From positions 1,728,001-1,792,000 of the forward strand of contig OZ250172.1 in the NCBI GenBank assembly GCA_965237905.1: a stretch of 64,000 nucleotides of DNA, written 5' to 3'. Position 1 is the stretch's first letter; every line of letters begins with the position of its first letter. Positions 8 to 23,781 of the stretch are shown in pieces. Made by a program: the position numbers and the translations under genes. Source of the DNA: Nitrospinaceae bacterium. Lineage in GTDB: Bacteria > Nitrospinota > Nitrospinia > Nitrospinales > Nitrospinaceae. The notes under the pieces were generated by a model, which was not told the DNA's origin, made no database searches, and saw nothing but the letters and a program-made list of their open reading frames with translations.

Positions 8-712
8 ATGGCCGTGATGTTTATTTTGGGCGCCATTCACTATATTGCCGAGATCGTTTCTGAAACCCCCGGTTACCCGCAAAGTGAAATCACCCGGCTT
101 GACATTAGCCTCTGGCTGATTTCCATTCCCTTTTATGTCCTTTTTGCAATCACCTGTCATCGACTGGTACTCCTTAGAGATAGCGGTATCGCGACTTATG
201 GCAATCTCACCTGGAGCAAACGGGAAACCCGGTTCTTCTGGTGGGGTGTGTTCATACCTCTGGCCTATATGCTATTGATCATACTGTTTCCTATCGGTTT
301 TGGACTTTTAATCAGGGTCTTCCCTGATTTTGGAAAATCTCCATCCGATTTGGCCGATTCGTTTTGGTTTAAAATGTTTGGCTATCTATTGTTTCTTCCA
401 TCCACTTATATAATTGCACGGCTCAGCCTGATCTTCCCGGCAACCGCTGTGGACCGGCAAGTCGATATCAAATGGGCCTGGAATCTGTCGCGCAACAATA
501 GCTGGCGGCTGACCGTGGTGGTTGGGATTTTGCCCTGGGTCTTCGCTTTCTTTCAAGGCCTGTTTGCAAGGGACAGCGCAACACTGGTGGAGGACTTAAT
601 TCACCTCATGGTGAGCTTTATCTTTTTGGCCGTGGAGATTGTCGCCCTCTCCTTCTCCTATAAGCATCTGGCGGAACAGGTTGCCCCTCCCGCTTCCGCG
701 GTCTTACCCTGA
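8..712 (+). CDS. Multi-pass membrane protein, hypothetical (5' end may lie outside the window)
   Basis: 234-aa ORF with about 6 hydrophobic segments; starts at the window edge. Confidence 0.6.
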   Translation: MAVMFILGAIHYIAEIVSETPGYPQSEITRLDISLWLISIPFYVLFAITCHRLVLLRDSGIATYGNLTWSKRETRFFWWGVFIPLAYMLLIILFPIGFGLLIRVFPDFGKSPSDLADSFWFKMFGYLLFLPSTYIIARLSLIFPATAVDRQVDIKWAWNLSRNNSWRLTVVVGILPWVFAFFQGLFARDSATLVEDLIHLMVSFIFLAVEIVALSFSYKHLAEQVAPPASAVLP

Positions 713-724
713 AAGGAATATAAA

Positions 725-1465
725 GTGAAGACCCTTGCTTTTCTGCTGATGATCAGCCTGGCCGGGGGAGCTGCGTTTGCGCAGAGCCCTCCGGCACAGG
801 CCTCGGAACAAAAGGTCATTGCGGTCGTTCTAGGAAAAAAGATCACGGTCAAAGACAAGGACCGGCTCAAGGGCCTGATTTTCGGGACACTCCTGGAACA
901 GTTCGCCAAGGAAAACCGGATCGAGCCGACCGATGAGGAAATCGACACATTCATACAAAAGAACGAGGAAATAAAACAGCAACAGAACCTCCAGTTTAAG
1001 AAAAAACGGGAACAGTTGATCGCCGAGTTGAAGGATCCCAACCTGACCCAAAGCCAGCGTAAGGAGAAGCAACAATACCTGGAGACCCTCGATAAAGTTC
1101 TCAAGTCGAACCGCGAGACGAATGAGCTGACGAAAAAACTGACGCAGGAACAGGAGGAACAACTGCGCCCGATGCTACGCCGCATGGCGCGGCAGTTTGT
1201 CCGGCGATGGAAGATCAACAAGGCGCTCTTCGCGAAGTACGGGGGACGCGTGATTTTTCAGCAGGCGGGTGTGGAGCCGCTGGACGCCTATCGGGACTTT
1301 TTGCAGGAACAGGAAAAAAACGGCGCGTTCCGGATTCTCGACCCGAAGTATAAAGCACCCTTCTGGCGATACTTTACAAACGATGCCATGCACAGCTTCT
1401 ATGCCGGTGACGATGGAGCGAAGTTCATAAACACCCCCTGGTGGCTGATGGAACCACAGGAATGA
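725..1465 (+). CDS. Exported helical protein, SurA N-terminal-like
   Basis: Signal peptide ending AAFA-Q; VIAVVLGKKIT and coiled-coil segments; AAGGA RBS upstream. Confidence 0.55.
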   Translation: MKTLAFLLMISLAGGAAFAQSPPAQASEQKVIAVVLGKKITVKDKDRLKGLIFGTLLEQFAKENRIEPTDEEIDTFIQKNEEIKQQQNLQFKKKREQLIAELKDPNLTQSQRKEKQQYLETLDKVLKSNRETNELTKKLTQEQEEQLRPMLRRMARQFVRRWKINKALFAKYGGRVIFQQAGVEPLDAYRDFLQEQEKNGAFRILDPKYKAPFWRYFTNDAMHSFYAGDDGAKFINTPWWLMEPQE

Positions 1466-1787: not shown

Positions 1788-1945
1788 CCTCCTCCCCGGA
1801 GGGGGAACTGGCTGACGGTTGACGTCTTACGATGTTCTCCCCGCGCAATTGGAAGTTTCAAAATTTGCTCCGGGCCTTGCCCGGCTCCTCCCCGGAGGGG
1901 GAGCTGGTTGACCGTTACCTGCATTGTCAATCATCATGCACAATT
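1788..1945 (+). repeat. Two tandem copies of a hairpin repeat family
   Basis: CCTCCTCCCCGGAGGGGGAACTGGCTGACGGTTGAC at 1788-1823 and CTCCTCCCCGGAGGGGGAGCTGGTTGACCGTTAC at 1885-1918, each followed about 20 nt later by GCRCAATT; hairpin CCGGGCCTTGCCCGG at 1870-1884 between them. Confidence 0.85.
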
Positions 1946-1960
1946 GAAAATAGGTAAAAG

Positions 1961-3148
1961 ATGAAAATTGCTCACTGGTTCCGACGTAAAGTCAGCGCGG
2001 CGACGCGTGCGCTCACCCTGATGATGCCCCTGCCGCATGGCTTCGGTATGAAAGCGAATTACGAATCGATCGCGCGCGAAGGTTACATGACCAACAGCGT
2101 CGTCTTCGCCTGCATCCGGGAAATCGCCGAGGCCTCAGCCGGCGTGCCCTGGCAGTTGTTTCAAACGCAATCGGATGGCGCACAGAAAGAACTCACCGAC
2201 CATCCCCTGCTGAAACTGATCGACCAACCCAATCCGTTCCAGGGAAGATTCGAGCTGATCGAAAACCTCACCGCTTACCTGTATCTTTCAGGTAACGCGT
2301 ATCTGGAGGCCGTCGGGCCGACGTCCGGTAGTCGCGGTTCCAAACCGCCGACGGAACTGTATGTGTTACGACCCGACCGCATGGCCATTCTGCCCGATCC
2401 CACCCACTTCATCCGCGGCTACGAGTACAAGGTCGCGGGTCAGTCGGTGAAGTTTTCGCGCGACCAGGTCATGCATCTCAAGTTGTTTCATCCGCTGGAC
2501 GACTGGTACGGCCTGTCACCCATACAGGTGGCGGCTTTGCCGGTGGACAAGATCAACGCCAGCGACCGGTGGAACGCCGCCCTCCTCCAGAATTCCGCGG
2601 TGCCCTCCGGTGCGCTGGTGTCCAAGAAGCGCCTCACTGACGAGCAGTATGGCAGGCTCAAATCCGAGATGCGCGAGCAGTACCAGGGCGTCACCAACGC
2701 ACGTTCGCCGCTGTTGCTGGAAGAGGACATCGACTGGAAAGAAATCGGCAAGTCGCCGAAGGAGATGGACTGGATCGAAGGCCTCAAATTCAGCGCCTTG
2801 CAGATCGCACAGATCTACAACCTCCCGCCGGAGTTGATCGGCCTGCAACCCGCCACCTACCAGAATCGCAAGGAAGCGCGAAAAGCTCTCTATACAGAAG
2901 TCGTGCTACCGGCGCTCAGCCGCCTGCGCGATTCCCTCAACACCTGGCTGACGCCGCGCTTCGGTGACGGCCTCCTGCTGAACTTCAACCGCAACGCTAT
3001 CGAAGCCCTGTCCGAAGACCAGAGCGCGTTATGGAAGCGCGTCAACGAGAGCCGGTTCCTCACCCTCAACGAACAACGCCAGATGGTCGGCTACGAAGCC
3101 ATCCCCGGCGGCGACTCCTTCCCGGAGGGGGAACTCGCTGACCGTTGA
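1961..3148 (+). CDS. HK97-family phage portal protein
   Basis: Motifs VFACIREIAE, LSGNAY, HLKLFHPLDDWYGLSPIQ, IAQIYNLPPELIG, LTLNEQRQMVG. Confidence 0.95.
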   Translation: MKIAHWFRRKVSAATRALTLMMPLPHGFGMKANYESIAREGYMTNSVVFACIREIAEASAGVPWQLFQTQSDGAQKELTDHPLLKLIDQPNPFQGRFELIENLTAYLYLSGNAYLEAVGPTSGSRGSKPPTELYVLRPDRMAILPDPTHFIRGYEYKVAGQSVKFSRDQVMHLKLFHPLDDWYGLSPIQVAALPVDKINASDRWNAALLQNSAVPSGALVSKKRLTDEQYGRLKSEMREQYQGVTNARSPLLLEEDIDWKEIGKSPKEMDWIEGLKFSALQIAQIYNLPPELIGLQPATYQNRKEARKALYTEVVLPALSRLRDSLNTWLTPRFGDGLLLNFNRNAIEALSEDQSALWKRVNESRFLTLNEQRQMVGYEAIPGGDSFPEGELADR

Positions 3149-3210
3149 CTCCTGACGACGGTCGTTGGACGCAATTCAAAGTTTTAATTTATCTGCGGCG
3201 ATACGCCGCC
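3115..3210 (+). repeat. Hairpin repeat copy overlapping the portal 3' end
   Basis: CTCCTTCCCGGAGGGGGAACTCGCTGACCGTTGAC, then GACGCAATT, then ATTTATCTGCGGCGATACGCCGCC. Confidence 0.85.
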
Positions 3211-3232
3211 ATTATGCCGATGGAGCATCACG

Positions 3233-3769
3233 ATGAAGGAATACCATTCTTTTGAATTCAAGTTAAACGACGTGTCCGACAACGGTCAGTTCCAGGGCTA
3301 CGCCGCGACCTTCGGCAACGTCGATTTGGGAAACGACGTGGTGGAACCGGGAGCGTTCGAGCAGTCTCTGCGTGACACCGGGGGCGGGAAGATTCCCATC
3401 CTCGACCACCACAACCCGGCCCAGCAGATTGGCTGGAACCTGGAAGCCCGGGAAGATAGCATCGGCCTGTTCGTGCGGGGTCAACTCGACCTCAACGTGC
3501 AGGCCGCCCGGGAACGCCACAGTCTGATGAAGCTGGCCGCCCAAGTCGGCGGACGCAGTGGATTGTCCATCGGATTTCAAACCGTGCGCGACGAACCCGA
3601 CCCGGAGAATTTCAAAATCCGTTGCCTTAAGGAAATCCGCCTGATGGAGTACAGCCTCGTTACCTTCCCGATGAACCCGGAAGCCGGCGTCACCCGAATT
3701 AAGACCGACAACGGATTAACCCTTCAAGAATCATTGCACACCTTACTAACTCACCTGCGCGCCAATTAA
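3233..3769 (+). CDS. HK97-family prohead protease
   Basis: FQGYAATFGNVD...DVVEPGAF, ILDHH, GLSIGF, LMEYSLVTFPMNPEA. Confidence 0.95.
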   Translation: MKEYHSFEFKLNDVSDNGQFQGYAATFGNVDLGNDVVEPGAFEQSLRDTGGGKIPILDHHNPAQQIGWNLEAREDSIGLFVRGQLDLNVQAARERHSLMKLAAQVGGRSGLSIGFQTVRDEPDPENFKIRCLKEIRLMEYSLVTFPMNPEAGVTRIKTDNGLTLQESLHTLLTHLRAN

Positions 3770-3827
3770 TTCCCTCCCTTCATTATCAAGAAGACGGAGC
3801 GCAGGACCCCACACAAGGAGTTTCTGA

Positions 3828-5018
3828 ATGCAGGACCTTAAACAACTCGTCAACGACATCAACCATTCCTTTCTCGAGTTCAAAACGAGAAACGACCAGC
3901 GCCTGTGCGAGCTGGAAAAAGGGCGGCGCGATCCGCTCATCAACCAGCAGGTCGACACCCTCGCCCGCGAAGTGCAGAACCTGGCGGAAATCAAATCCCG
4001 CATGGAGCACATTGAAACGCAACTCAACCGGCCCGTGTTCGAAACCGGCAACCGGTTTGAAAGTTCCTTGCGGCACGAACAGAAGCAGATTATCAACAAG
4101 TACCTGCGCTACGGAGAAAGCGCGTTGACCCCGGACGAAGTCAAGCAACTGTCGGTCGACAGCGATCCCCAGGGCGGTTACTGGGTGACCGGCGAAATGT
4201 CGCAACAGGTCATCACCAAAGTGTTCGAAACCTCGCCGATGCGCACCCTCGCCACGGTAGAAACCATCAGCTCTGACGCGCTGGAAATTCCCGAGGACAT
4301 CGGCGAAGCGGCTGTCGGTTGGACTGCCGAGACTGGTGTGCGCAGTGAGACTGCTTCGCCCACCATCGGTGTCCGGCGCATCCCGGTGCATGAAATCTAC
4401 GCCATGCCCAAAGCCACCCAGCAACTGCTCGACGACGCACGCGTCAATGTTGAGGAATGGCTGAGCGGCAAAATCGCTTCCAAAATGTCCACCACTGAAA
4501 ATACCGCGTTCATCAACGGCGACGGTGTCGATAAACCGCGCGGCGTGCTGACCTACCCGGCAGGCGCGACCAACCCCGGTGAAATCGAGCAGATCAATTC
4601 CGGCAGTGCCGGTGCGCTCACCGCCGACGGTTTGCGCTCGTTGTTCTACGCACTGAAAACGCCGTACATCCGCAACGCACGCTGGATCATGGGACGCTCC
4701 ACCATCGAGACCATCTCCAAGTTGAAAGACGGCGGCGGTGAGTACCTGTGGTCACCGGGCCTCAAGGAAGGCGAACCGCAGATGTTGCTGGGCCATCCCA
4801 TCGACCGCATGGAAGACATGCCGGCGGTTGCCGCCAACGCTCTGCCGGTCGCGTTCGGTGACTGGAAGCAGGCGTACACCATCGTCGACCGCGCCGGGGT
4901 ACGCGTCCTGCGCGATCCCTACAGCTCGAAACCCTTCGTGCTGTTCTATACGACCAAGCGGGTCGGCGGCGACATCACCAACTTTGAAGCGATGGCCATC
5001 CAAAAAGTGTCTGCTTAA
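3828..5018 (+). CDS. HK97-fold major capsid protein, GTA-capsid-like C-terminus
   Basis: N-terminal coiled-coil delta domain; ENTAFINGDGVDKPRG; FGDWKQAYTIVDR...RVLRDPYSSKPFVLFYTTKRVGG; AAGGAG RBS. Confidence 0.95.
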   Translation: MQDLKQLVNDINHSFLEFKTRNDQRLCELEKGRRDPLINQQVDTLAREVQNLAEIKSRMEHIETQLNRPVFETGNRFESSLRHEQKQIINKYLRYGESALTPDEVKQLSVDSDPQGGYWVTGEMSQQVITKVFETSPMRTLATVETISSDALEIPEDIGEAAVGWTAETGVRSETASPTIGVRRIPVHEIYAMPKATQQLLDDARVNVEEWLSGKIASKMSTTENTAFINGDGVDKPRGVLTYPAGATNPGEIEQINSGSAGALTADGLRSLFYALKTPYIRNARWIMGRSTIETISKLKDGGGEYLWSPGLKEGEPQMLLGHPIDRMEDMPAVAANALPVAFGDWKQAYTIVDRAGVRVLRDPYSSKPFVLFYTTKRVGGDITNFEAMAIQKVSA

Positions 5019-5067
5019 CGGCGGAGCATCATTTCCAAAATATTAAGAATAATCAAAGGAGAAACGA

Positions 5068-5454
5068 ATGCGAGACATCAAGAACAATCTGGACGGCGTC
5101 AGTTCCATCGACCCGGCCAGCTATACGGCAACCACCAACGGGTCCGGTGTGGACTTGCGGGATTTCGACGGCGCAATGATGATGTTTCAGGCCGGTACTG
5201 CCGACACCGGGAGCGGTAACGAAACTTACGCCCCAGGGGTGGAAGAGTCGGACGACAACTCAACTTACTCTACTGTCGCCGCGTCCGATCTGGAAGGCGT
5301 GCCGGTCAACATGACGGCGAACTCGGTTCAGCGCGTCGGTTACAAAGGCGCCAAGCGGTACATCCGCGCGGTGCTGACTCTGGGCGGCACAACTCCCTCC
5401 ATCAATGCTTCGGCGCTGGTCATTCGAGGTCTGCCGCACCATGCCCCCCTCTAA
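5068..5454 (+). CDS. Putative head decoration/cement protein
   Basis: 128 aa directly after the capsid gene; beta-rich with GYKGAKRYIRAVLT; AAGGAG RBS. Confidence 0.6.
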   Translation: MRDIKNNLDGVSSIDPASYTATTNGSGVDLRDFDGAMMMFQAGTADTGSGNETYAPGVEESDDNSTYSTVAASDLEGVPVNMTANSVQRVGYKGAKRYIRAVLTLGGTTPSINASALVIRGLPHHAPL

Positions 5455-5545
5455 CGAGGGATGAAACTTGCTCAACGTGATTGCCAGAAAGAATCGTTGA
5501 GCGCAATTTAGCGAATCATGACTTCCCTCAACTGTGAGGGAGGTC

Positions 5546-5806
5546 ATGAAGCTGAGGAAAAATATGAAAGTGAAAATGAATCGCACCTGTTTCGGGTCGC
5601 CCGACGGGATGCAGGTGAATGAATATAAAAAAGGCGAGACCTATGACCTGCCGGACCCACTGGCCGAGGTGTTTGTCCAGCAACGCTGGGCCGTAAAGGT
5701 CGTCAAGACTCCCCGGAGGACGAAAGATGCGGGCGCCGCTCCGGAAAATAAATCCGTGAAAAATAAAATGAAACGCAAAACCAAACGAGGTGGTCATGGC
5801 GCTTAA
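5546..5806 (+). CDS. Small basic phage protein
   Basis: GGAGG RBS; YKKGETYDLPDPLAEVF then a Lys-rich APENK tail, as often seen between capsid and adaptor genes. Confidence 0.6.
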   Translation: MKLRKNMKVKMNRTCFGSPDGMQVNEYKKGETYDLPDPLAEVFVQQRWAVKVVKTPRRTKDAGAAPENKSVKNKMKRKTKRGGHGA

Positions 5807-6473
5807 GCTGAAAACCCCGCCTGCTTCCGAACCGGTGACTTTGGCGGAAACCAAGTCTTACCTTAAAGTTACCGGCACCACAGACGACACGTTGATCAGC
5901 CAGATCATCACCGCCCTCCGCAAAAGTTGTGAAGACTGGACCGGGCGTGTGCTGGTCACACAGACCTGGACCTTGTGGCGCGATGCGTTTCCGCACCGGG
6001 AAAAGGATCGCCTGCCACACGCCGGGTATTTCGAATTGCCGGTGGACTTCGCCGACGAGGCGCAACGTGTGGTTTGCATTCCGCGTCCACCTTTGCAGGC
6101 GGTGACCTTTTTGAAAACGTATAACACCGGCAACCAGGCGACGACCTTCGACGCCGGCAAATATTTTGTGGACGCCGCATCCGAACCGGGGCGGGTTGTT
6201 TTAAATCAGTCCAGCGCGTGGCCGACGGGTCTGCGTCCGGTCAACGCGGTGGAGATTGAATTCATCGCGGGTTATGGCGACGCCTCGGCGGTGCCCGACG
6301 CGCTCAAGCAGGGCATGCTGTTGTGGATCAAACTGCTTTATGCCGATAGAAACTGGTTGTTCGAGTTGGGCGAGTCAACCGCCGGATTGATCGAGTTCAA
6401 TCGCAATGACGTGCCACCACCGGTGGCCTCGTTGTGGTCGCCCTATAAAATCTATTCACTGGACCCGAGGTGA
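5796..6473 (+). CDS. Head-tail connector/adaptor (gp6-like)
   Basis: PPASEPVTLAETKSYLKV, VLVTQTW, VEIEFIAGYG...VPDALKQ. Confidence 0.9.
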   Translation: MALKLKTPPASEPVTLAETKSYLKVTGTTDDTLISQIITALRKSCEDWTGRVLVTQTWTLWRDAFPHREKDRLPHAGYFELPVDFADEAQRVVCIPRPPLQAVTFLKTYNTGNQATTFDAGKYFVDAASEPGRVVLNQSSAWPTGLRPVNAVEIEFIAGYGDASAVPDALKQGMLLWIKLLYADRNWLFELGESTAGLIEFNRNDVPPPVASLWSPYKIYSLDPR

Positions 6474-6850
6474 CCGTGAGCATCGGATTCTTCTTTCCCA
6501 CGCAGTCGGCACCGACGGCACAATGGGTGCCCGGCAAACCGCCTCTGCTTCCGGTGTGGAGCACCACTGATTATCCTGAACAACTGACTGGCGAGACGGC
6601 GGGAGGTGCGTTGTATGTGCAGGACAAGGGACCTCAGCGCGAGCGGTTTGAGTTGAAGTTTGAACGTATCACCCAAAGCGACCGCGACGCGGCCTTGGCG
6701 CTTTTTAACGCTGTCAAGAAATCGTTCAGTCCCTTTGAGTACCAGGATGCCGAAGGCACTCCGCACAATGTTCGCTGGCTGAACGGGTTCGAGTTTCAGG
6801 AAACGGTGCCCGGCCGCTATTCGGGAACCCTCCATTTAAGAAAAGAATAA
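6470..6850 (+). CDS. Putative distal-tail (lambda gpM-like) protein
   Basis: 126 aa; GTGA-coupled to the adaptor gene; FELKF...FNAVK...PFEYQD pattern. Confidence 0.45.
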   Translation: MTVSIGFFFPTQSAPTAQWVPGKPPLLPVWSTTDYPEQLTGETAGGALYVQDKGPQRERFELKFERITQSDRDAALALFNAVKKSFSPFEYQDAEGTPHNVRWLNGFEFQETVPGRYSGTLHLRKE

Positions 6851-6886
6851 CTGCACACTCGTGGCAGCCATTGGGAGATTCATTCG

Positions 6887-7204
6887 ATGATTGATTGGCA
6901 AAACGCAAATTTAAAAGAGTTCACCTTTGACGTGGATGTGGAAGGGATTCAAGAGATCGGATCTTCGCAGGTGTTCCCGGTCAAGGTACACACCCAGGAC
7001 GGCACCCCCGCCTTCACCTGCACCGTTCCAGTGCGTGCAGAGTTTTACCGTCAGTTGAAACAAACCGCCGACTGGGAATCGGCCCTGCTCAAAATTCTGA
7101 AGAGCCGGGTGCGGGAGGAAATCCTGAAACGTAAGAAACACAATCCCGTTCCCATAGAAGATAAACTGCAACTGATCGGTAAACAAATTTCAACCGCGGA
7201 CTGA
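6887..7204 (+). CDS. Hypothetical protein in the phage-like cluster
   Basis: 105-aa ORF with GGGAG RBS; no recognisable motif. Confidence 0.6.
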   Translation: MIDWQNANLKEFTFDVDVEGIQEIGSSQVFPVKVHTQDGTPAFTCTVPVRAEFYRQLKQTADWESALLKILKSRVREEILKRKKHNPVPIEDKLQLIGKQISTAD

Positions 7205-7207
7205 TGC

Positions 7208-10200
7208 ATGCGCACTTTTACCGGCGGGTTCACTGCCACCAAAAATAAAAAAAGTCATCAACCGGTCAACCTCCTGAAAATTGCCTGGCCTGCCATTGGC
7301 GCGTTTCCGGCGAAGACGCTGAATCTTGCCGACCGCGCCGTGACCATTGATGGCGTGGACTGGTTGCCGTTGGTGGAGGACTGGGGCGCGATTGAAGGAA
7401 CAGGTTTGGATGCCCTACTTCAAAACTCGGGAGAGGAGAAGGCAAAGGTGGAGTTGGTGAACGCGCCGGTGGATTTCGGTGAGGGACCGCAACGGTTCTC
7501 GGACCTGTTGTTTGAGTATCCGCCGGAAGCGGCCACGGGCGTTCTGTACCAGTGGTTCGAGGGCGAGGGATTGGTCACTGGCGATCAAACCGAATTGCTG
7601 ACCGCTCGCATCGTTGACCCTGTGGATTATGACGAGCGTATCTGTTCGCTTCATTTGGTAGTGGAGTCAGCGCATCATGGCCGTCGCATGGTGGGCAACA
7701 CGTTGACGCTAACGGATTATCCGGACGCGCCGGAGACTTCCATCGGATTGATCAAGCCGATTGTCATCGGTCAGGTGGAGGATGTACCCGGTGTGCCGGT
7801 GCGGCAGGTGTATAACACGCGGCTGGCGTCCGTGGCTTTGCCCGGTGCGAGTACGTTGGACGTCGCCTCGACTCTCGGGTTTGCCGCCAGCGGATCGGTG
7901 GTGATCAACGATGACACCATCAGCTACTCGGGAGTCACTGCCACTCAGTTTACCGGATGCAGCGGCATCAATGAATTTCATTACGCGGGTGACGAGGTGA
8001 TCGAGAGTGTGTCCGATCACCGTTACCTGTTAAGCGATTCCGACTACCCTATCTTCAGTATCAGCAACGTGAAGGTCGCGGGGGAGTTGTCGGACGGTGC
8101 GGGTTATGCCATCGACCTGGCCCAGGGGGAAGTGGTTTTCAGCGAAAAACCGCGCAAGGTGGTTTCTATCGACACGCGGTTTCTGCAGGCGCAGTTTGAT
8201 GCCACGGCTACCGGCAACACCGCCATCGATCCGCTCAACGCCACCAACCCTCTTTCCCGAACCGCCTTCGCGCAAATTTCCCAGGTCAACCGCAAGTTGA
8301 AACTGCAACAGATCACGAACATGGCCGCTCTGGGTGAAATCAATAAGGTTCTTCTGCGTGTCGAGTATTTTGTGGAGGAGAAACTACCGAACGATCTGAT
8401 CGTTGCGCGGCTGGAGGGTTTGGGCGATGTGGGCACGTTATCGTCTCCCGCCGATGTGGATTTAGCCAGCACCACTGGCGATACGGATATCACCCACAAT
8501 CATCTCGACACATTTGGTTTTCCCGTCAACATCCCCAACCACCTGCACACCGCCACCACCGAGGCGGACCGGGTGGTGATTCAGGGCGCGTCCAGCGGTC
8601 CGGCGGGCAACCTGACGATCACCGATCCAAACGACATTGGTCCTTTTTCTATTGCCGTCACTTTCCCGGCACCGCCCAGTGGAACTTTGAAAGCGGAATA
8701 CAAGGTGACTTGGAGATACAAAACGGTCACTTTTGCGTCCGGCATTCCGACGTTGAAGTTCGGCACGCATGTGATCGGAGTGTTCAACGGTGTTCGGGCA
8801 GATTTCGATTACACACAGAATTTCACGGTTGCGTCAGGTACGGGTGGCGATACCTGGAACATTACGCTGAGCTCCGGCTTTATGAAATTTGATCTGATGT
8901 CGGTCGAGCGTACCATTTATTACGCACCCAACCCCGCGACGTTGTCGAATCCGCTGGACACGGTGAAAGGCGGAGGCGTCACCCAGCACGGATCGATACC
9001 GGTACTGACGGCTACCACCGAAAAGTCCACCAACACGGTGGTGAACCATTTCGATATCAGTTCTCTGGTGAACCGCGACTGGAGCTGGTTCACCAATAAG
9101 GTGGTGGAGATTGAGTACACCGGCAGTTTCGACGGTCGGACGGCATACATCATTCATACCGCGTTTGAAATCGAATACGCACGCCGGCGCTTGGAAGCGA
9201 CCGATGCAGTGACCGCTGATGTGGCCGGTGTCAAAGATGATAGCGTGGGGACGGTTACCGGAACACCGGATGTAGTGATTGAACGGCCCGATCATGTGTT
9301 TCGCTGGTCGATTCTGAATCTGCTGGGCCTAACCGCTGCCATCATTGATGATTCTTCGTTTAACCAAGCGGGAACAGAATTGGGCAATGTCATCACCGGC
9401 GGTTATAAGCTGGCCGGTGTGGTTCAAAGTAAAGTGTTGCTGGAAACGCTGTGGCGGCAATGGATGAAGGAAAGCCGTTCGCATCTGTTCTGGGATCCCG
9501 TCGGTAAAGCCCGGCTGCAGTTTCGTCCCATTAATCGGTCGTTGGTTGCGGTGGGCAACGAAGTGAAAGCACTGACCGAAAGTATGGTGCGCCTCGATCC
9601 AGAGACCGGGGCCGGTCGTATTCAATTTCAACGGACGCCTTCCGACGGGGTGGTCAATCACATTGAGCTGGGGTACCAGCGCGATTGGGTAGCGGACCAC
9701 TACCGGAAAATTCATGTGGAGTCGGACAATGACACGATCGGCCTGTTCGGAAGGCGCGAACGGCCCGACGAATTTTTCTTCGACTGGTGCCGCAATTCCG
9801 TTATGGCGGAAGATCTTGCCCAATTTTATCTGGCGGAATTGAAAGAGCCGCAGACTCTGATTGAGTGCGAGGTTTTTCTCGATCAACTGGAATTGGAGCG
9901 GGGGGACTTCGTCACCGTATCGCATCCGCTGATATCGGGATCGAGCGCACTACATGGCATCGTGTTGCCTGGAAGTCATGTTCCCGGCTCGGGAAAAAAG
10001 CGGCGCATGGACGAATTGGATTTGCTGATTCGTTTGTTCCCCAGCGAACATTTGCGCGATCTGCTGGGTGAGACCGTAGGGATCACGGATGCTTTGAGTT
10101 TCCTCGCGGGCTTCGAGCTGGACATGCCCGAGTCGATAACGATTACCGATGCCGGTTTTATTGATGAGTTGGATGGTTGGGGTTCCCAGGATTGGGGAAC

Positions 10201-10231
10201 CAGCGGGTGGGGAGGCCTGGCGCCGCTGTGA
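7208..10231 (+). CDS. Large tail-tip/baseplate hub protein
   Basis: 1007 aa; YPDAPETSIGLIKPIVIG; C-terminal VVNHIELGY...LELERGDFVTV resembling phage tail hub domains. Confidence 0.7.
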   Translation: MRTFTGGFTATKNKKSHQPVNLLKIAWPAIGAFPAKTLNLADRAVTIDGVDWLPLVEDWGAIEGTGLDALLQNSGEEKAKVELVNAPVDFGEGPQRFSDLLFEYPPEAATGVLYQWFEGEGLVTGDQTELLTARIVDPVDYDERICSLHLVVESAHHGRRMVGNTLTLTDYPDAPETSIGLIKPIVIGQVEDVPGVPVRQVYNTRLASVALPGASTLDVASTLGFAASGSVVINDDTISYSGVTATQFTGCSGINEFHYAGDEVIESVSDHRYLLSDSDYPIFSISNVKVAGELSDGAGYAIDLAQGEVVFSEKPRKVVSIDTRFLQAQFDATATGNTAIDPLNATNPLSRTAFAQISQVNRKLKLQQITNMAALGEINKVLLRVEYFVEEKLPNDLIVARLEGLGDVGTLSSPADVDLASTTGDTDITHNHLDTFGFPVNIPNHLHTATTEADRVVIQGASSGPAGNLTITDPNDIGPFSIAVTFPAPPSGTLKAEYKVTWRYKTVTFASGIPTLKFGTHVIGVFNGVRADFDYTQNFTVASGTGGDTWNITLSSGFMKFDLMSVERTIYYAPNPATLSNPLDTVKGGGVTQHGSIPVLTATTEKSTNTVVNHFDISSLVNRDWSWFTNKVVEIEYTGSFDGRTAYIIHTAFEIEYARRRLEATDAVTADVAGVKDDSVGTVTGTPDVVIERPDHVFRWSILNLLGLTAAIIDDSSFNQAGTELGNVITGGYKLAGVVQSKVLLETLWRQWMKESRSHLFWDPVGKARLQFRPINRSLVAVGNEVKALTESMVRLDPETGAGRIQFQRTPSDGVVNHIELGYQRDWVADHYRKIHVESDNDTIGLFGRRERPDEFFFDWCRNSVMAEDLAQFYLAELKEPQTLIECEVFLDQLELERGDFVTVSHPLISGSSALHGIVLPGSHVPGSGKKRRMDELDLLIRLFPSEHLRDLLGETVGITDALSFLAGFELDMPESITITDAGFIDELDGWGSQDWGTSGWGGLAPL

Positions 10232-10336
10232 TGCCGGATGGAATCCTCCAGGAAGAAAGAATTACGTTAACCCTCTGCGGACCGGAGGGAGAGATCAAAG
10301 AACAGTTCACCTTTATTACACAAAGGAGTCGATCCC

Positions 10337-10690
10337 ATGATTGTCGATTCAGGACTACAACATATCGCCGACCAGATGTCGGACCAGAGTCAAACAACCA
10401 TGAGCCACTTGGCGGTGGGCACGGGAACCAACGCGGAGGCGGCCAGCCAGACAGCTCTACAAACAGAAAGCGCACGGGTGGCGTTGACCTCGAAAACCCT
10501 CAGTGACAAGAAGGTGGTGTACGTGGGTGACTTCCCTGCCGGGGTGGGAACGGGCGCAGTGACCGAAGCCGGTTTGGTCAATGCCGCATCGGCGGGCGTT
10601 CTGCTTTCGCGGATTGTGTTTCCCGTCAAGAACAAAGGCCCGAGTGATACGCTAAAGATCATTATCGAACACACTTACGCCCGAGGTTAA
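10337..10690 (+). CDS. Tail collar/fibre-associated virion protein
   Basis: HLAVGTG...TALQTE...GAVTEAGL...LLSRIVFPVKNK; AAGGAG RBS. Confidence 0.65.
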   Translation: MIVDSGLQHIADQMSDQSQTTMSHLAVGTGTNAEAASQTALQTESARVALTSKTLSDKKVVYVGDFPAGVGTGAVTEAGLVNAASAGVLLSRIVFPVKNKGPSDTLKIIIEHTYARG

Positions 10691-10693
10691 TAC

Positions 10694-11140
10694 ATGCCGA
10701 CTTTCACACCAAGATTAAATCTCACCCAACCCGATACCGGGAACAAGACTTGGAAAACCGACATCGAAAACTGGGCCAACCAGTTGGACAAAATGGCTGC
10801 TCAGTATTTGACGTTTCACCTCGGCGGCGCGGCGATCGATGAGGAAGTAATTTTCGACGGTCACTTTTTCGATGAGGACGTCACTATCATCGAAGTCACT
10901 CTATACGCGCGCGAAGCACCGAGCGGTGCGGCCTTTACCATCGACTTTACCAAGGGTGGGATCGAACAGACGAAAACCGCGACTCTTGCAGACAGTTCGA
11001 ACAAGGGTAACACGGCGATCACAGGGTTGAGTTATACCACACTGGAGGAATTTGGCATCAAGGTGAAGAGCGTGGGCAGTGCCGACCCCGGTTCCGAAAT
11101 TACGATTCTCGTTCACTACCATATCAAGGCCTTGCCTTAA
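10694..11140 (+). CDS. Virion structural protein, beta-rich
   Basis: N-terminus TPRLNLTQP typical of tail-fibre attachment domains. Confidence 0.55.
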   Translation: MPTFTPRLNLTQPDTGNKTWKTDIENWANQLDKMAAQYLTFHLGGAAIDEEVIFDGHFFDEDVTIIEVTLYAREAPSGAAFTIDFTKGGIEQTKTATLADSSNKGNTAITGLSYTTLEEFGIKVKSVGSADPGSEITILVHYHIKALP

Positions 11141-11149
11141 GGAGACATT

Positions 11150-12328
11150 ATGCTCAGCCGCAAACTGGTTTTTATTTTTATTCTGCTGTTGGCTATAGCC
11201 AACCCCGCATCGGCGATCAAGTACAAGGGCGACTTGGAAGCCAACGAATCGTTGACTTTGCCGGAGCAAAGCGCGAAACCCGCCAATCCTTCATCGGGCA
11301 AACATAAGCTGTACTTCAAAGATGACGGAGCCCCGTACTCTCTCGATCCATCCGGCAATGAAAATCCCATCAACAGGGCCGGGATTAAAAACTACCTCAT
11401 CAACGGCGGTTTCCGGTTATGGCAGAGAGGGACCAGTTTCACCACAATGGATTCTTATGGGGCCGATCGGTGGAAACACGGGTCTCCCGGTACCGCCACC
11501 GTCAGCCGTCAGGAGTTTACGCTGGGTCAAACCGATGTCCCTGGGGAACCGGAATTTTACTGGAGGAACGATACGACGGTTGCTGGTGTGGGGACAGCTA
11601 CATTGTTCAGGCAACGGATCGAGGATGTCCGAACCTTGGCCGGGCAAACCGTAACGCTTTCTTTTTGGGCGAAGGCCGATGCCAGCAAAATATTCCAGGT
11701 TGTCATACAGCAAGTATTCGGTACCGGTGGATCCCCCAGCGCAGATATTATCGCTTTAAACCAATCGCAACCCATAGAAACGGCGTGGACTCGATATACC
11801 TATACCGTCACGATCCCATCCATCAGCGGTAAGACGTTGGGCACGAACGACGACGATTATCTGGAAATTCTAATCCAAGAGACGTCAGGCTTCTCAACTT
11901 TTACACTCGACGTAGCACAAATCCAACTCGAAAAGGGAGCGGTTGCCATAGCGTTCGGGTATCGCCCTATAGGTTTAGAATTGAGATTAGCTCAAAGGTA
12001 TTACTGTAAGACTTATGCGCAAGGGACCGATCCCGGAACAGCAACACCATCGGGTATAGTCACCGCCGGATTCAATGGAGTGAGCTTATCCCCTCGTCAG
12101 ATACGCACAAATTGGGTTTTCCCGGTTACCATGAGGGCTGCTCCTTCAATTACCTTTTACGACCAGTTTGGAACTTCCAGTTCCTGGGAGGACGGTAATG
12201 GCGGCGGGGCAACCGTAGTGGTTCTTGCCAACACGTCGTCAGACAATTCGGTAAATATTGCCGTAGACACGGCGTCGCTCGCCGATGCAAGAATTTTGGG
12301 TCACATCGTGGCGGATGCGGAACTTTGA
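11150..12328 (+). CDS. Tail fibre/receptor-binding-like protein with an apparent signal peptide
   Basis: KNYLINGGFRLWQRG...ADRW, VTLSFWAKA, QLEKG...ELRLAQRYY, FPVTMRAAP; hydrophobic N-terminus; AAGGAG RBS. Confidence 0.75.
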   Translation: MLSRKLVFIFILLLAIANPASAIKYKGDLEANESLTLPEQSAKPANPSSGKHKLYFKDDGAPYSLDPSGNENPINRAGIKNYLINGGFRLWQRGTSFTTMDSYGADRWKHGSPGTATVSRQEFTLGQTDVPGEPEFYWRNDTTVAGVGTATLFRQRIEDVRTLAGQTVTLSFWAKADASKIFQVVIQQVFGTGGSPSADIIALNQSQPIETAWTRYTYTVTIPSISGKTLGTNDDDYLEILIQETSGFSTFTLDVAQIQLEKGAVAIAFGYRPIGLELRLAQRYYCKTYAQGTDPGTATPSGIVTAGFNGVSLSPRQIRTNWVFPVTMRAAPSITFYDQFGTSSSWEDGNGGGATVVVLANTSSDNSVNIAVDTASLADARILGHIVADAEL

Positions 12329-12343
12329 GGAAAAAATCATCAA

Positions 12344-12607
12344 ATGCTTATCTTTCACACGTATTTTTATTCTATAGGTGTTTGCTGTATGGGCGACGTA
12401 TCCAATCACTTCTGCGAAGTGGACTCGCAGCAGAATAATCCGTGTTTTATGAACAATAAGCGCGGGATAAATGTGCCTGGCGATATGTCCAACAGCGACC
12501 GACGAGTGCTTAACGAGTGGGTCGACGAAAGCAACGCTATCTCTCCCCAGATCCTGCTCTGGTATTATTTTGGTTGGATGCCTTTAATGATGTCTTGGAT
12601 GGTTTGA
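12344..12607 (+). pseudogene. Degenerate small tail-fibre-associated gene
   Basis: INVPGDMSNSDRRVLNEWVDESNAISP resembles the IP-x-D-x-x-N-x-D...W...GN motif of small post-fibre proteins; flanking sequence looks eroded. Confidence 0.35.
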
Positions 12608-12971
12608 TTGAGGGTCTTAATATCGATCGGTTTGGTGATAAAGGCATCCATTCCGACAACGAGACAATCAGTTTTTTTAGCCTCCTCGTCGTGGGCCGTC
12701 ATGCAATAATGGGGGTGTAGACAGGCGTTGCAATCGATAAGGCCTTCTCTTTGGCCCTTATTTTCCGGGCGGCTTCGATCCCGCTGATACCTGGCATCTC
12801 TAAGTCCATGAGAATGACATCAAAGGAGCCCTCCAGAAAATAGTCCACAGCCTCCTTACCATTTTCAGCAGTGGTGATCTCATGACCTCTTTTTTCTAAC
12901 AGCCGGGTGGCTAGATCCAGATTGGCCGGGTTGTCATCCGCCAGGAGAATTTTGTATGTGATAGTGGACAT
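12565..12971 (-). pseudogene. Single-domain response regulator with a 1-nt frameshift
   Basis: ILLADD...DVILMDLEMP...PIIA-stop; the shifted frame continues MTAHDEEAKKTDCLVVGMDAFITKPID... to TAA at 12565-12567. Confidence 0.8.
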
Positions 12972-13864
12972 TATAAATCTTTCCAGGCGCCAATAATTTT
13001 ACCAACGATTGGTTGCGGGTTTTCGTTCAAATCGATGATCTGTATTTCTGCATTAGGATTGATCGGCCGCAGGATGAGCAGATGGGTTTTCTTTTCAAGA
13101 AACTTGGCGGTTAGGCCTCCCTCATGATATATGGCAAACATCTTATTTTTGACAATTATTTTATCATCCCGGTCGATAACGACAATATCTCCAGGGTGGA
13201 GCATGGGTTCCATGGAATGGCCGTCGACCCGGCTGGCCACCAGATTGGTGCGCTTGCCGGCGGCGCGGATATGAAGCAGGACATAGTCTTCAATATTCTC
13301 CTGCGGGATGATCGGTTGTCCAGCGGCGATGGCTGATTCGGTAAGTGGCACCGAGACGAAATCCTCTCCAGAAATTTGGGGAATTTTTTGGGCGCTGGTG
13401 GTCTGGAAAATTTTGAGCTGGGGGCTTTGAAACAGCAGGGATCCATCATCGGTGAGAGCGGACGGATGGACCTCCAGAATTTCACTGAATCTCTGAATTA
13501 AGTCGCTTGAAAACAGGCATTTACCCTGCTCATACAGCTCAAGCACTTTGGGAGATATCGATAATTTTGACCCCAATTCATTTTGTGACCAGCCTCTTGA
13601 GATTCGGAAACCCTTAATTCTTTTGGCAATTATCTGATTTAAGTGGGAAGAGGGTTCGATTCCTGATATCAACCATTGGAGATCTATATGAAAGTATTTA
13701 GCGATTTTGGAGAGTGATTCTGGATCAGGTAAACTCTTACGTTGAATACATTTTTTTATGTTTTCATAATTCAAGCCCACGCTTTGGCAAAAGTCCGCCA
13801 GGGACTGCCCTTCCTGCAGAACGAGTATTCTATTTAAAACCTCACCAGTTTTTATATTAGGCAT
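12971..13864 (-). CDS. CI/LexA-like repressor: two XRE HTH domains plus S24 peptidase
   Basis: HTH1 (SLADFCQSVG...IDLQWLISG), HTH2 (RISRGWSQNELG...YEQG), AIAAG cleavage site, DGHSMEP serine, TAKFL lysine. Confidence 0.9.
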   Translation of the reverse strand: MPNIKTGEVLNRILVLQEGQSLADFCQSVGLNYENIKKCIQRKSLPDPESLSKIAKYFHIDLQWLISGIEPSSHLNQIIAKRIKGFRISRGWSQNELGSKLSISPKVLELYEQGKCLFSSDLIQRFSEILEVHPSALTDDGSLLFQSPQLKIFQTTSAQKIPQISGEDFVSVPLTESAIAAGQPIIPQENIEDYVLLHIRAAGKRTNLVASRVDGHSMEPMLHPGDIVVIDRDDKIIVKNKMFAIYHEGGLTAKFLEKKTHLLILRPINPNAEIQIIDLNENPQPIVGKIIGAWKDL

Positions 13865-13876
13865 ACAAAATATATA

Positions 13877-13931
13877 TTGACATTAAGGGACATTTGTCCC
13901 ATACTATAACACAGATAGGGACAATTGTCCT
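13877..13931 (+). promoter_or_regulatory. Sigma70-type promoter with two palindromic operators
   Basis: TTGACA 13877-13882, 17 bp, CATACT 13900-13905; GGGACATTTGTCCC 13887-13900 and GGGACAATTGTCCT 13918-13931. Confidence 0.75.
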
Positions 13932-14160
13932 AATATTTTTAACTATTTGTATAATAAGGATAAAATTGTTAAAAATTTTAAATTGAATGTTTGAATGGGT
14001 GATAGATGTTGCAAGCATCGCACAAAAAATTCCGCAATCAAATATATTTATAGTCATTAGGATGCAAATACTTCTAATTAGGGAAGGAATGAGTCGCTTT
14101 TGCCAAAATTGAAAGTGCGGCAAGTTTGTGTGTTGGATCGTTTTGATAATGGGGAGTCTG

Positions 14161-14586
14161 ATGAAGAAATTGAAACTTGTTAAGACCAGTGGAAAGAAAG
14201 CTACCCAACGGTTATTTCGATGCCCGGTGGTGGTCCTGACCTTGGCCAACGGTGAGGTTGTAAAAAGAGGTTGTGGCCGGGCTGGGATGTCGGAATTTGA
14301 CGCCTGTCTGAGATGTTTGTATTGCGGAAATTACCTGTATAAGAAGGCTCCCAGTTTGGAATCCATGTGGTTTCATTTTCGCTGGGCCAGGGAATTCTGG
14401 AGGATTCACAACAACCATGGCCGTGATTTTGTGAATGGGATTCCGGTGATGGGGAAAGCGGAAACGTTGCCCTCCTCCTGTCTTCCGGATTTAGCTGAGT
14501 CCAAGCCTCCCTGGTGGTTCCCATATTTTTTAAAATACAGCGATCAGGAATTCCGGGAATATATGTTTAATTTGAAAACGGGTTGA
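14161..14586 (+). CDS. Cys-rich hypothetical protein (possible Zn ribbon), divergent from the repressor
   Basis: GGGGAG RBS before ATG 14161; RCP...GCG...CLRCLYCG. Confidence 0.65.
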   Translation: MKKLKLVKTSGKKATQRLFRCPVVVLTLANGEVVKRGCGRAGMSEFDACLRCLYCGNYLYKKAPSLESMWFHFRWAREFWRIHNNHGRDFVNGIPVMGKAETLPSSCLPDLAESKPPWWFPYFLKYSDQEFREYMFNLKTG

Positions 14587-14594
14587 GATACACC

Positions 14595-15176
14595 ATGGCT
14601 TCAATAGATAACCAAAGACCGATCTGCGCCGTACATTCCGTATCCTCCAAAGTCTGCACTGGGGAGGTGATGGAGGTGGTTCTGCATTCGGGGAATTCCA
14701 CTGAACAGGACGCTTTTCCCCATAGCTTGAATTTATGCCAGTATCATTATCAATTGGAATTAATGGTTTGGGGGATCAAAAAGTTTTTTCAGGTCTATAA
14801 CTTATTATTAAACACAAGTGATTGCGAGGATACGGCCAAAAGCCGTTGGCAGGAGGCGTTGGAGCCTTTCCCAGATGATTCGCGTCTTTACTTCAGTTTG
14901 CCTGACGAGCTGGAATTCTGGCTAAATCGCTTAGCGGGGGATCTTTCCGACGACGGTTGTCATCCCCGGTCAGAATTTGAGTATCTGAAAGAAGTGCCTA
15001 TCAACTTGGGCGAGATCTGTTTGACCGACAAACAGTTAATGGCCGTGTGCATGGTATTTTATGGAGGCGTGAAAAAAAAGCGAGCCGCCCAGGCGATGAA
15101 TATTACCAGCCAGGCCCTGTCCGACCACGTCAAGGCCGCTCTCAAAAAAATCGGGGATAACCTGGCCAGTATTTAA
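14595..15176 (+). CDS. Putative transcription activator with a C-terminal sigma70 region-4/LuxR-like HTH
   Basis: LTDKQLMAVCMVFYGGVKKKRAAQAMNITSQALSDHVKAALKKI; N-terminal Cys/His cluster. Confidence 0.65.
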   Translation: MASIDNQRPICAVHSVSSKVCTGEVMEVVLHSGNSTEQDAFPHSLNLCQYHYQLELMVWGIKKFFQVYNLLLNTSDCEDTAKSRWQEALEPFPDDSRLYFSLPDELEFWLNRLAGDLSDDGCHPRSEFEYLKEVPINLGEICLTDKQLMAVCMVFYGGVKKKRAAQAMNITSQALSDHVKAALKKIGDNLASI

Positions 15177-23115: not shown

Positions 23116-23781
23116 ATGAGTTCTCTTTCCAAACAGCAGATCCTAACGGTTCTAAGCAATGCAAAGTTGGAATTAGGGGATATTCAATTTTCTGATGAGA
23201 TGATCAGTCGTTTTCAGGAATTCTGCGCACTTCTTCAGAAGTGGAATGACAAGATCAACCTGACCAGCGAGAAAGACGCACTCTCGATTCTTGAAAAGCA
23301 CATTTTTGATTCCCTGCAATACCTTCGCTGGCTGGATTCATCTCATAAAACCCTCGACATCGGCAGTGGCGCCGGGTTTCCCGGTATTCCTATCAAGATT
23401 ATTTACCCCGATTTGGATTTAACTCTGATGGAGAGCCAGAGGAAGCGGTGCAATTTTTTGCGCGAGGTCATTCGCTCCTTAAAGTTGGATAGAATTGATG
23501 TGGTGGAAGGGCGCGCCGAGAGTTTTTCTGGTCACGATACCTTTTTGGAAAGATTTGATCGGATTCTTTTTCGAGGATTCAGCTCTTTGGGCACCTGTCT
23601 AACCATCGGCCTGCCTTTTTTGAAAATAAACGGGAAGATAGTACTAAAAAAGAGTCCGGAAGAGATGCCGGACTCAACCTCTGAAACCGTCCAAAATGCC
23701 CGGATTATCGCGTCAAAAGAAGTTGAAGGATTTGAGGGGCAGGGTTCTCTAATGATGATTATTGAGAAGTGTTCCACGTGA
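23116..23781 (+). CDS. rsmG: 16S rRNA m7G527 methyltransferase
   Basis: WNDKINLT, HIFDSL, LDIGSGAGFPGIP; lies upstream of parAB. Confidence 0.95.
   Translation: MSSLSKQQILTVLSNAKLELGDIQFSDEMISRFQEFCALLQKWNDKINLTSEKDALSILEKHIFDSLQYLRWLDSSHKTLDIGSGAGFPGIPIKIIYPDLDLTLMESQRKRCNFLREVIRSLKLDRIDVVEGRAESFSGHDTFLERFDRILFRGFSSLGTCLTIGLPFLKINGKIVLKKSPEEMPDSTSETVQNARIIASKEVEGFEGQGSLMMIIEKCST

Follow-up and report, generated by a model that had tools for sequence, protein, structure and literature searches.

The gene set of RcGTA, the gene transfer agent (GTA) of Rhodobacter capsulatus, includes genes for head closure, tail terminator, tail tube, tape measure and a separate baseplate hub. Its small terminase lacks the N-terminal DNA-binding domain, and this lack was proposed as the cause of random packaging (PMC6854486, in part), while CcGTA, the GTA of Caulobacter crescentus, is encoded by a single 14-kb late cluster under activation and antitermination (PMC11150451, in part). 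The criteria applied here to GTAs as viriforms were taken from parts of PMC9953437 (section 3) and PMC9662315. The element described below, of about 18.3 kb, lies in a Nitrospinaceae bacterium (GCA_965237905.1, contig OZ250172.1; genome G000, a single 3.09-Mb contig). Its first ~3.1 kb precede the analysed window, a stretch of 64,000 nucleotides (G000:C1:1728001-1792000). It starts back-to-back with the host dnaA, on opposite strands, and the reading judged somewhat probable is that of an ancient phage-derived element that now works as a GTA-like particle system.

Nitrospinota are the main marine nitrite oxidizers, and few independent origins of GTAs are recognized. No GTA of Nitrospinota and no description of the element were found in the literature within reach, which left out subscription papers and bioRxiv supplements. 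A term search detected no mention of phage or capsid in PMC10839748 and PMC13768755, and the accessible part of a Nitrospinae cell-sorting paper mentioned only 'phage-related genes' and 'phage remnants'. The case is order-wide, and cultured carriers are named among the capsid matches, whose labels include Nitrospina watsonii, Ca. Nitronauta litoralis and Ca. Nitrohelix vancouverensis.

Distribution and descent of the element

A survey of 120 genomes of the phylum yielded capsid matches in 42, comprising 40 orthologues at 58-100% identity, a broken remnant (G023) and an unrelated weak match (G042). The orthologues were present as a single copy per genome and their identity dropped with declining kinship. 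All matches fell within one order (eight of 20 genomes of family f1 in addition to G000, four of five in f2, and 29 of 70 in f4), and the six other families, with 24 genomes, had none. TerL (large terminase) matches were present in 45 of the 120 genomes.

Twenty-nine stretches were examined, 22 of which held dnaA, and element genes or remnants stood right beside dnaA in 20 of these. The remaining two consisted of an empty site (G074) and a stretch that stops at dnaA. For the 22 genomes with all five genes, a tree of TerL, portal and capsid was compared with a tree of rpoB and rpoC. Seventeen of 19 splits were common to both, the two conflicts having support of 0.7 or less, and patristic distances were correlated at r = 0.97 (0/999 permutations as high). 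These data show a fixed site and vertical inheritance with the host, the latter being one of the GTA criteria; on the preferred reading, the element had become fixed next to dnaA by the time of the common ancestor of three Nitrospinales families. Hub relatives amounted to 91 matches, all named ones belonging to Nitrospinota except one partial protein labelled Desulfuromonadales, and the best matches in cultured phages were 45% for the capsid (Azospirillum Cd), 42% for TerL and a 7% fragment for the hub.

Three genomes that had lost the capsid (G030, L075; G042, L078; G041, L077) kept intact small and large terminase genes beside dnaA, and G041 additionally retained the portal and a protease-tail fusion. 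In G047 (92% complete), a lone intact capsid orthologue of 58% identity (L050, G047:C1:14875-16062) was surrounded by unrelated host genes, and that genome showed neither a TerL match nor a listed tube match; a separate co-option of the shell is possible.

Purifying selection on the element

Ratios of nonsynonymous to synonymous substitution rates (dN/dS; Nei-Gojobori) are within-genus medians over pairs with dS of 0.1-2.0, which are not independent of one another. They were 0.062 for TerL (56 pairs), 0.052 for the portal (68), 0.059 for the capsid (71), 0.088 for the hub (31), 0.060 for the tube (44) and 0.086 for the repressor (25), compared with 0.083, 0.064, 0.047 and 0.028 for the host genes dnaA, gyrB, rpoB and rpoC, respectively. 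Across eight non-overlapping pairs, head and motor genes ranged from 0.03 to 0.11, tip genes from 0.09 to 0.22 and host genes from 0.02 to 0.08; in the three tube-less pairs the tip genes reached 0.12-0.22, with upper bounds of at most 0.27.

Domestication, as claimed in a preliminary description of the window, is supported by the fixed site, the vertical descent and the purifying selection. The synteny, dN/dS and congruence checks attached to that claim gave the fixed dnaA site, 0.05-0.06 for the large head genes and 17 of 19 shared splits. On genomic evidence alone, the element is selected and non-self-propagating, with no integrase or replication module, as is asked of a GTA. The same description had also offered a deleted prophage as an explanation. 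Frequent deletions and insertions, frameshifts or stops in some copies (G065, G071, G073, G089), a broken receiver (REC) gene in G000 and the stepwise loss of tail genes would suit a grounded prophage in slow neutral decay without host function. This explanation is nevertheless very unlikely, being already largely refuted by dN/dS values near those of housekeeping genes at dS near 1, and disfavored also by the congruence with the host tree and by an operator and promoter kept across three families.

Gene content

The features of the element and its borders are as follows, with positions in the window unless genome positions are given.

Genome 1723044-1724474, minus strand: host dnaA, left border of the element
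Genome from 1724839, plus strand: leader hairpin (z ≤ -2 in 12 of 18 loci)
Genome 1724912-1725100, plus strand: 62-aa protein, holin-like by position only, no family match
Genome 1725090-1725434, plus strand: 114-aa protein, no family match
Genome 1725431-1725937, plus strand: membrane-anchored coiled-coil protein, no family match
Genome 1725930-1726418, plus strand: small-terminase homologue without the N-terminal helix-turn-helix (HTH) region of ~65-70 aa
Genome 1726241-1727851, plus strand: intact large terminase TerL, 536 aa (phrog_38, E 1.5e-111)
8..1465, plus strand: two inserted non-phage genes between TerL and portal (8-712 and 725-1465)
1789..1916, no strand: two copies of a dispersed genomic repeat, outside the element proper
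1961..3148, plus strand: HK97 portal
3233..3769, plus strand: prohead protease, catalytic motifs conserved
3828..5018, plus strand: HK97 major capsid protein
5068..5454, plus strand: decoration-like protein (phrog_5707; weak Bbp16 match below cut-off)
5534..5806, plus strand: small conserved protein (phrog_2616)
5790..6473, plus strand: head-tail adaptor (TIGR02215, phrog_442), with a 4-base overlap with the distal-tail gene
6470..6850, plus strand: distal tail protein (Dit, tube-initiator fold by AlphaFold model), 126 aa
6887..7204, plus strand: 105-aa conserved protein between Dit and hub
7208..10231, plus strand: baseplate hub of T5 tail-tip type by AlphaFold model, 1007 aa
10337..11140, plus strand: two small fibre/collar genes, 117 and 148 aa
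11150..12328, plus strand: tail fibre or receptor-binding protein (phrog_4492; weak CBM_4_9 match below cut-off)
12549..12971, minus strand: single-domain REC gene coupled to the repressor (low coordinate approximate)
12971..13864, minus strand: CI-like repressor with two HTH domains and an S24 self-cleaving domain
13877..13930, plus strand: sigma70-type promoter with palindromic operator
14128..14586, plus strand: 152-aa cysteine-rich protein, candidate regulator (dN/dS 0.13)
14583..15176, plus strand: 197-aa protein whose C-terminus holds a sigma-region-4-like HTH, candidate late activator or antiterminator (weak matches only)

The co-directional intact open reading frames (ORFs) of the preliminary description, with portal, protease, capsid, decoration-like and adaptor genes, were all recovered. 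TerL ends ~150 bases upstream of the window start, and the inserts at the TerL-portal point vary within the genus. The tail fibre gene (11150..12328) is fast-changing between genomes. The minimum of GC skew falls within the element, and a parS-like site at window position 23770 lies ~11.4 kb past the fibre gene, in agreement with the ~11 kb estimated before. Five integrase-family matches were found in the genome, none within 700 kb of the element, which upholds the earlier statement that it holds no integrase. No transposase was seen in the element, the targeted PF09299 search being uninformative as it matched no control either; the PF05838 search was uninformative for the same reason. The earlier statement that no lysis gene is present stands in that no endolysin was found, but the element begins, ahead of the window, with small membrane-type genes that belong to no known family. 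The working labels 'DUF2730' and 'holin' given to small head-end genes, which follow the gene order of Mu-like phages, got no family support.

In the stretches examined, gyrB and gyrA come directly after dnaA, and no long ORF separates these genes (genome 1720214-1724474). Conserved at the right border in several genomes is a 552-aa membrane protein (15187-16845, minus strand) without Pfam, PHROG or NCBIfam match. In L042 (17974-19884), L049, L051, L077 and L078, the gene behind the repressor promoter encodes an SMC-like ATPase and is probably an early gene left over; it was not found in G000. Genera g18 and g22 (L043, L052, L048) carry an 88-98-aa phrog_12296 gene together with LamG or NHL-repeat proteins between TerL and portal, and the proteins of this region are possibly head fibres.

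A repeat doublet had been noted at the place where a terminase would normally be. The doublet exists (2 x 32 nt, 91% identity), but since the repeat is dispersed genome-wide (148 blastn lines at E ≤ 1, self included), it marks no lost terminase, and it was rejected as a terminase scar, att site or pac site. The intergenic family is REP/MITE-like (repetitive extragenic palindrome/miniature inverted-repeat transposable element), ~100-130 bp long, with many copies, among them window 1789-1916 and 3107-3210, and some in tandem (e.g. genome 1848661-1849070).

DNA packaging genes

The earlier statement that no terminase is present proved wrong, as an intact TerL of 536 aa and a small-terminase homologue (TerS) lie just before the window; packaging genes are 'elsewhere' only in the trivial sense of 2-4 kb upstream in the same element. 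Genome searches with PF03354 and PF03237 missed TerL, which was recovered only through relatives. Its nearest relatives are terminases of Mu-like phages, including Casadabanvirus, which we take to be Mu-like. All 37 of 37 element TerLs had an intact Walker A motif; the last nuclease motif was intact in 35, and the remaining two are gaps. Compared with 18 viral TerLs, the 17 examined from the element formed a single separate group (support 99).

The element TerS is homologous to the gene directly before TerL in Mu-like viruses. A profile of its longer relatives matched 26 of 4743 ORFs of viral loci, 20 of these being among the listed genes directly before TerL; one such pre-TerL viral gene passed the DUF1804 cut-off and weakly matched HTH and small-terminase families. 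Eight longer relatives aligned only from residue ~70 onward, and the first ~65-70 residues of the viral relatives, where HTH profiles match, are missing from the element TerS. This lack is no start-codon artefact, because the open frame before the TerS core has a median of only 4 codons over 49 locus hits (some genomes counted twice); in six of the 49 this open stretch reached 66 codons or more. With a profile of the missing N-terminal part, nothing better than E 0.08 was obtained in element loci. Atlas searches with the TerS candidate and with the 105-aa gene returned only scores under 0.9, and nothing meaningful came from searching PDB sequences with profiles of Dit, TerS and the hub.

A TerS without the HTH region points to sequence-blind packaging, and the equivalent lack in the RcGTA small terminase was reportedly described by Sherlock and colleagues. 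On the mostly random host DNA that a GTA packages, the observations are indirect, namely an HTH-less small terminase and an intact large one. Packaging could instead begin from a site inside the element or close by and proceed processively, so that the origin region is mobilized in a manner like lateral transduction, and not random DNA. The fixed place at the origin, the GC-skew minimum within the cluster and a terminase closest to those of transposable phages, which package from the chromosome, are in line with such a start; the probability given to it is nonetheless very low, as the region that would read the site is missing from TerS. A DNA-free particle, one of the options in the preliminary description, is scarcely credible. 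No closure gene was found, which would agree with an empty shell, but TerL is present and conserved with intact ATPase and nuclease motifs, and selection constrains the portal as strongly as rpoB-class genes.

Full-length TerS relatives (P0232, P0234) occurred on contigs equal in size to those of capsid relatives with 63-68% identity (P0182, P0179), and these contigs may be ancestor-like phages or early copies of the element.

Head and tail genes

The best solved relative of the capsid was the RcGTA capsid (E 6e-71), and the likeness of the two C-termini noticed earlier was found again. The sole solved match of the adaptor was the RcGTA adaptor (E 0.01), and the catalytic motifs of the protease are conserved. 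The AlphaFold model of Dit (pLDDT 82) matched a lambda tail-tip chain (Z 9.4, rmsd 3.2, 104 aligned) and T5 pb9 (Z 8.9, rmsd 2.1, 94 aligned), and that of the hub matched the T5 tail tip (7zhj_b; Z 20.5, rmsd 3.5, 488 aligned), so that the distal-tail-like gene and the 1007-aa hub of the preliminary description were borne out; fibre genes lie behind them, as described. The hub model has an inserted domain resembling carbohydrate-binding modules at about residues 320-660.

In the tube-bearing family f4, a neck gene, a terminator-position gene, a tube gene (PF18906) and two chaperone-position genes stand between adaptor and Dit; the label 'terminator' of the 158-aa gene of relatives is positional only, without family match. 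Most f4 copies also encode a 170-390-aa protein whose two ends are common to the 572-609-aa tape measures of separate prophages. G007 retains only terminator and tube in place. In several f4 genomes (L042, L051, L058, L062, L045, L046) either the mini tape-measure gene or the pair of chaperone genes has been relocated within the element, for example to the interval from TerL to the portal or to a place ahead of the adaptor, and is still open. Some relatives of the G000 element carry an M15 endolysin.

In f1, the family including G000 and called tube-less here, the gap between adaptor and Dit is about -3 to 20 bp in seven of eight genomes (estimated at 236 bp in G022), compared with 1.6-5.9 kb in 19 of 19 loci measured outside f1, one more locus being without Dit. 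Among 21 f1 genomes, tube and terminator searches found matches in only two, in each case within a separate lambda-like prophage. Because Pfam searches had missed the real TerL, the tube module was searched again with profiles built from relatives, which detected no neck, terminator, tube, chaperones, mini tape measure or endolysin in G000 (best E 0.3; control 1e-50). Four Pfam families likewise had no match in G000, no closure, terminator, tube or tape-measure gene was matched in the whole single-contig genome, and a head-closure gene was recognized in no element copy. The reported lack of these genes therefore extends from the window to the genome, and the proposal of tail genes elsewhere is not supported. 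As the tube-less genomes form one group (support 100/99), one loss of the tube module suffices; a single loss in f1, and with it the claim that the system is tube-less at the gene level, is supported. As for the tailed-phage-like particles expected of a GTA, the head and tip genes are intact, while f1 has no tube module. The relatives form a tail-reduction series, from a shortened tape measure through the absence of chaperones and neck in place to the absence of the tube.

Lambda-like prophages and viral contigs (L087, G022:C12; L088, G019:C2; L089, G046:C19; L145; L147) have tail modules related to that of the element, and are a likely source of its tail. A tube-less element might also borrow tube, terminator and tape measure from a co-infecting phage. 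Phage-inducible chromosomal islands of the capsid-forming kind (cf-PICIs) release heads devoid of tails, and these join tails of foreign origin (10.1101/2025.02.11.637232, in part); in G022, the tail of the lambda-like prophage is homologous (terminator, tube, chaperones, 572-aa tape measure, Dit 41%, hub 33%). Such borrowing is improbable, since G000, G020, G025 and G026 have no such prophage and the element is not mobile. Moreover, we know of no precedent for a system that keeps its own tip while borrowing only the middle of the tail.

Control region

The preliminary description had also proposed a switch belonging to the element, and the S24 repressor (12971-13864, minus strand) and two divergent genes are indeed present. 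The Ala-Gly site, the Ser and the Lys of the repressor are conserved in 24 of 24 sequences. An operator-like palindrome (≤2 mismatches) lies upstream of the repressor in 22 of 22 loci across three families, and the exact operator 13-mer occurs just twice in the genome. Placement by eye puts the operator between the -35 and -10 boxes of a promoter that points rightward, and a second copy is usually present 31 bp downstream. In 18 related loci the REC gene is full length (131-174 aa) and coupled to the repressor. Ahead of the first late gene lies a strong hairpin, the stems of which are specific to each lineage. Regarding the stress induction and producer lysis expected of a GTA, an intact S24 repressor with operators was observed, and no endolysin in G000. 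By analogy, the leader hairpin and the sigma-4-like gene suggest CcGTA-like control.

Proposed function

DNA damage would lead to cleavage of the S24 repressor and thereby free the promoter of the 152- and 197-aa genes, whose products may switch on or antiterminate the late operon starting beside dnaA. The HTH-less TerS and the Mu-like TerL would then fill HK97 heads with pieces of the host chromosome, using no packaging site. In f1, the tail would consist of the Dit ring (itself a ring of tube fold), the hub and the fibres, with attachment at the adaptor or close to it, and the result would be a stub-tailed particle carrying DNA to kin. A GTA-like role of the system is rather probable from its genes, and given that role, putative direct docking of the tail tip on the head has about equal chances of being right or wrong. 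A fuller scenario is tentative: an independent Nitrospinales GTA combining a Mu-like motor with an HK97 head and a T5-type tip, in which pac recognition would have been lost in the manner of RcGTA and, in f1, the tube shed, leaving Dit ring, hub and fibres docked on the head.

Several observations weigh against a GTA-like role. The role is deduced here from genes, and TerS is a candidate identified by homology, position and weak family matches. Two genes are inserted inside the operon in G000, where the REC gene is also frameshifted near codon 90, with identical letters in contigs of public runs (three runs, two of which may be source data). G000 shows no head-closure gene and no endolysin by which heads would be sealed and particles released. 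The tube-less f1 copies carry little signature of their own (adaptor 2/201 diagnostic sites, Dit 0 and hub 0, vs 3/1399 for rpoB). Loss is frequent, with a capsid match of any kind in just 26 of 57 near-complete genomes and deletion remnants at the dnaA site in G023, G024, G030, G041, G042, G073 and G090. Tip genes evolve somewhat faster in tube-less pairs (0.12-0.22) than in tube-bearing f4 pairs (0.09-0.14), and G032 has lost its fibre genes, both of which are compatible with slow relaxation after the loss of the tube.

The particles may also have been retained for uses other than gene delivery, such as producer suicide by chromosome chopping under stress, decoys or stub-tailed killers of competitors. 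The same selection and switch data apply to these uses, ordinary DNA injection is hard to picture in f1 without tube, tape measure and closure gene, and G030 and G042 still hold remnants reduced to the terminase genes, with TerL intact. However, head, portal, Dit and hub are jointly under purifying selection, and killers of the tailocin type normally retain the tube but not the head, the opposite of the pattern seen here; uses of this kind are regarded as unlikely. With GTA-like delivery as the preferred reading, the element is a strong candidate for a new, unusually short GTA. Loss of the DNA-reading region of TerS in a different terminase family would confirm a proposed GTA signature by convergence, and the tail-reduction series makes testable the minimum of tail required by a DNA-delivering particle.

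Comparison with known systems

The best reading is that of an independently evolved, SOS-switchable element, tube-less in f1, which acts most like a GTA but is outside the RcGTA family and unproven as a GTA in the strict sense. It differs from temperate prophages in having no integrase, no transposase that was seen, no replication genes, no variable sites and no mosaic descent. With cf-PICIs it shares head and packaging genes of its own and an incomplete tail; these islands, however, are mobile elements that package DNA of their own and have no part of the tail (10.1101/2025.02.11.637232, in part), whereas the element is fixed, keeps the tail tip and has no integrase. The integrase, the replication genes, the mobility and the lack of tail genes that mark cf-PICIs were thus all absent from it.

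Mu-like phages (Casadabanvirus JBD30 and DMS3; IMG/VR contigs L153-L192) have TerLs 41-54% identical to that of the element and a pre-TerL gene homologous to the TerS candidate, but retain the HTH region and have non-HK97 portals (three of three tested), in contrast to the HK97 head of the element. Lambda-like prophages of the same order (G022:C12; IMG/VR L145 and L147) share its tail order, with homologous Dit, 105-aa gene and hub. The G022 prophage differs in its phrog_15 terminase and lambda-type portal, and the proteins at the tape-measure position in G022:C12, L145 and L147 measure 572-1047 aa, compared with 170-390 aa in tube-bearing element copies.

Unlike CcGTA, the element appears to be controlled through an adjacent S24 repressor. 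Several differences separate it from the RcGTA type (Rhodogtaviriformidae): its host phylum is Nitrospinota and not alphaproteobacterial; its TerL is closest to those of Casadabanvirus and other Mu-like phages; it has a T5-type fused hub, its own internal CI-type switch and a fixed dnaA site; and the f1 element lacks tube, terminator, closure and tape measure, so that the RcGTA gene set is not reproduced. As to the RcGTA clade, its TerL is nearest to Mu-like TerLs and its capsid resembles that of RcGTA; the trees were built without RcGTA sequences. The element and the RcGTA type nevertheless have in common an HK97 capsid, an adaptor, the absence of replication genes, vertical descent and a TerS without N-terminal DNA-binding domain (PMC6854486, in part).

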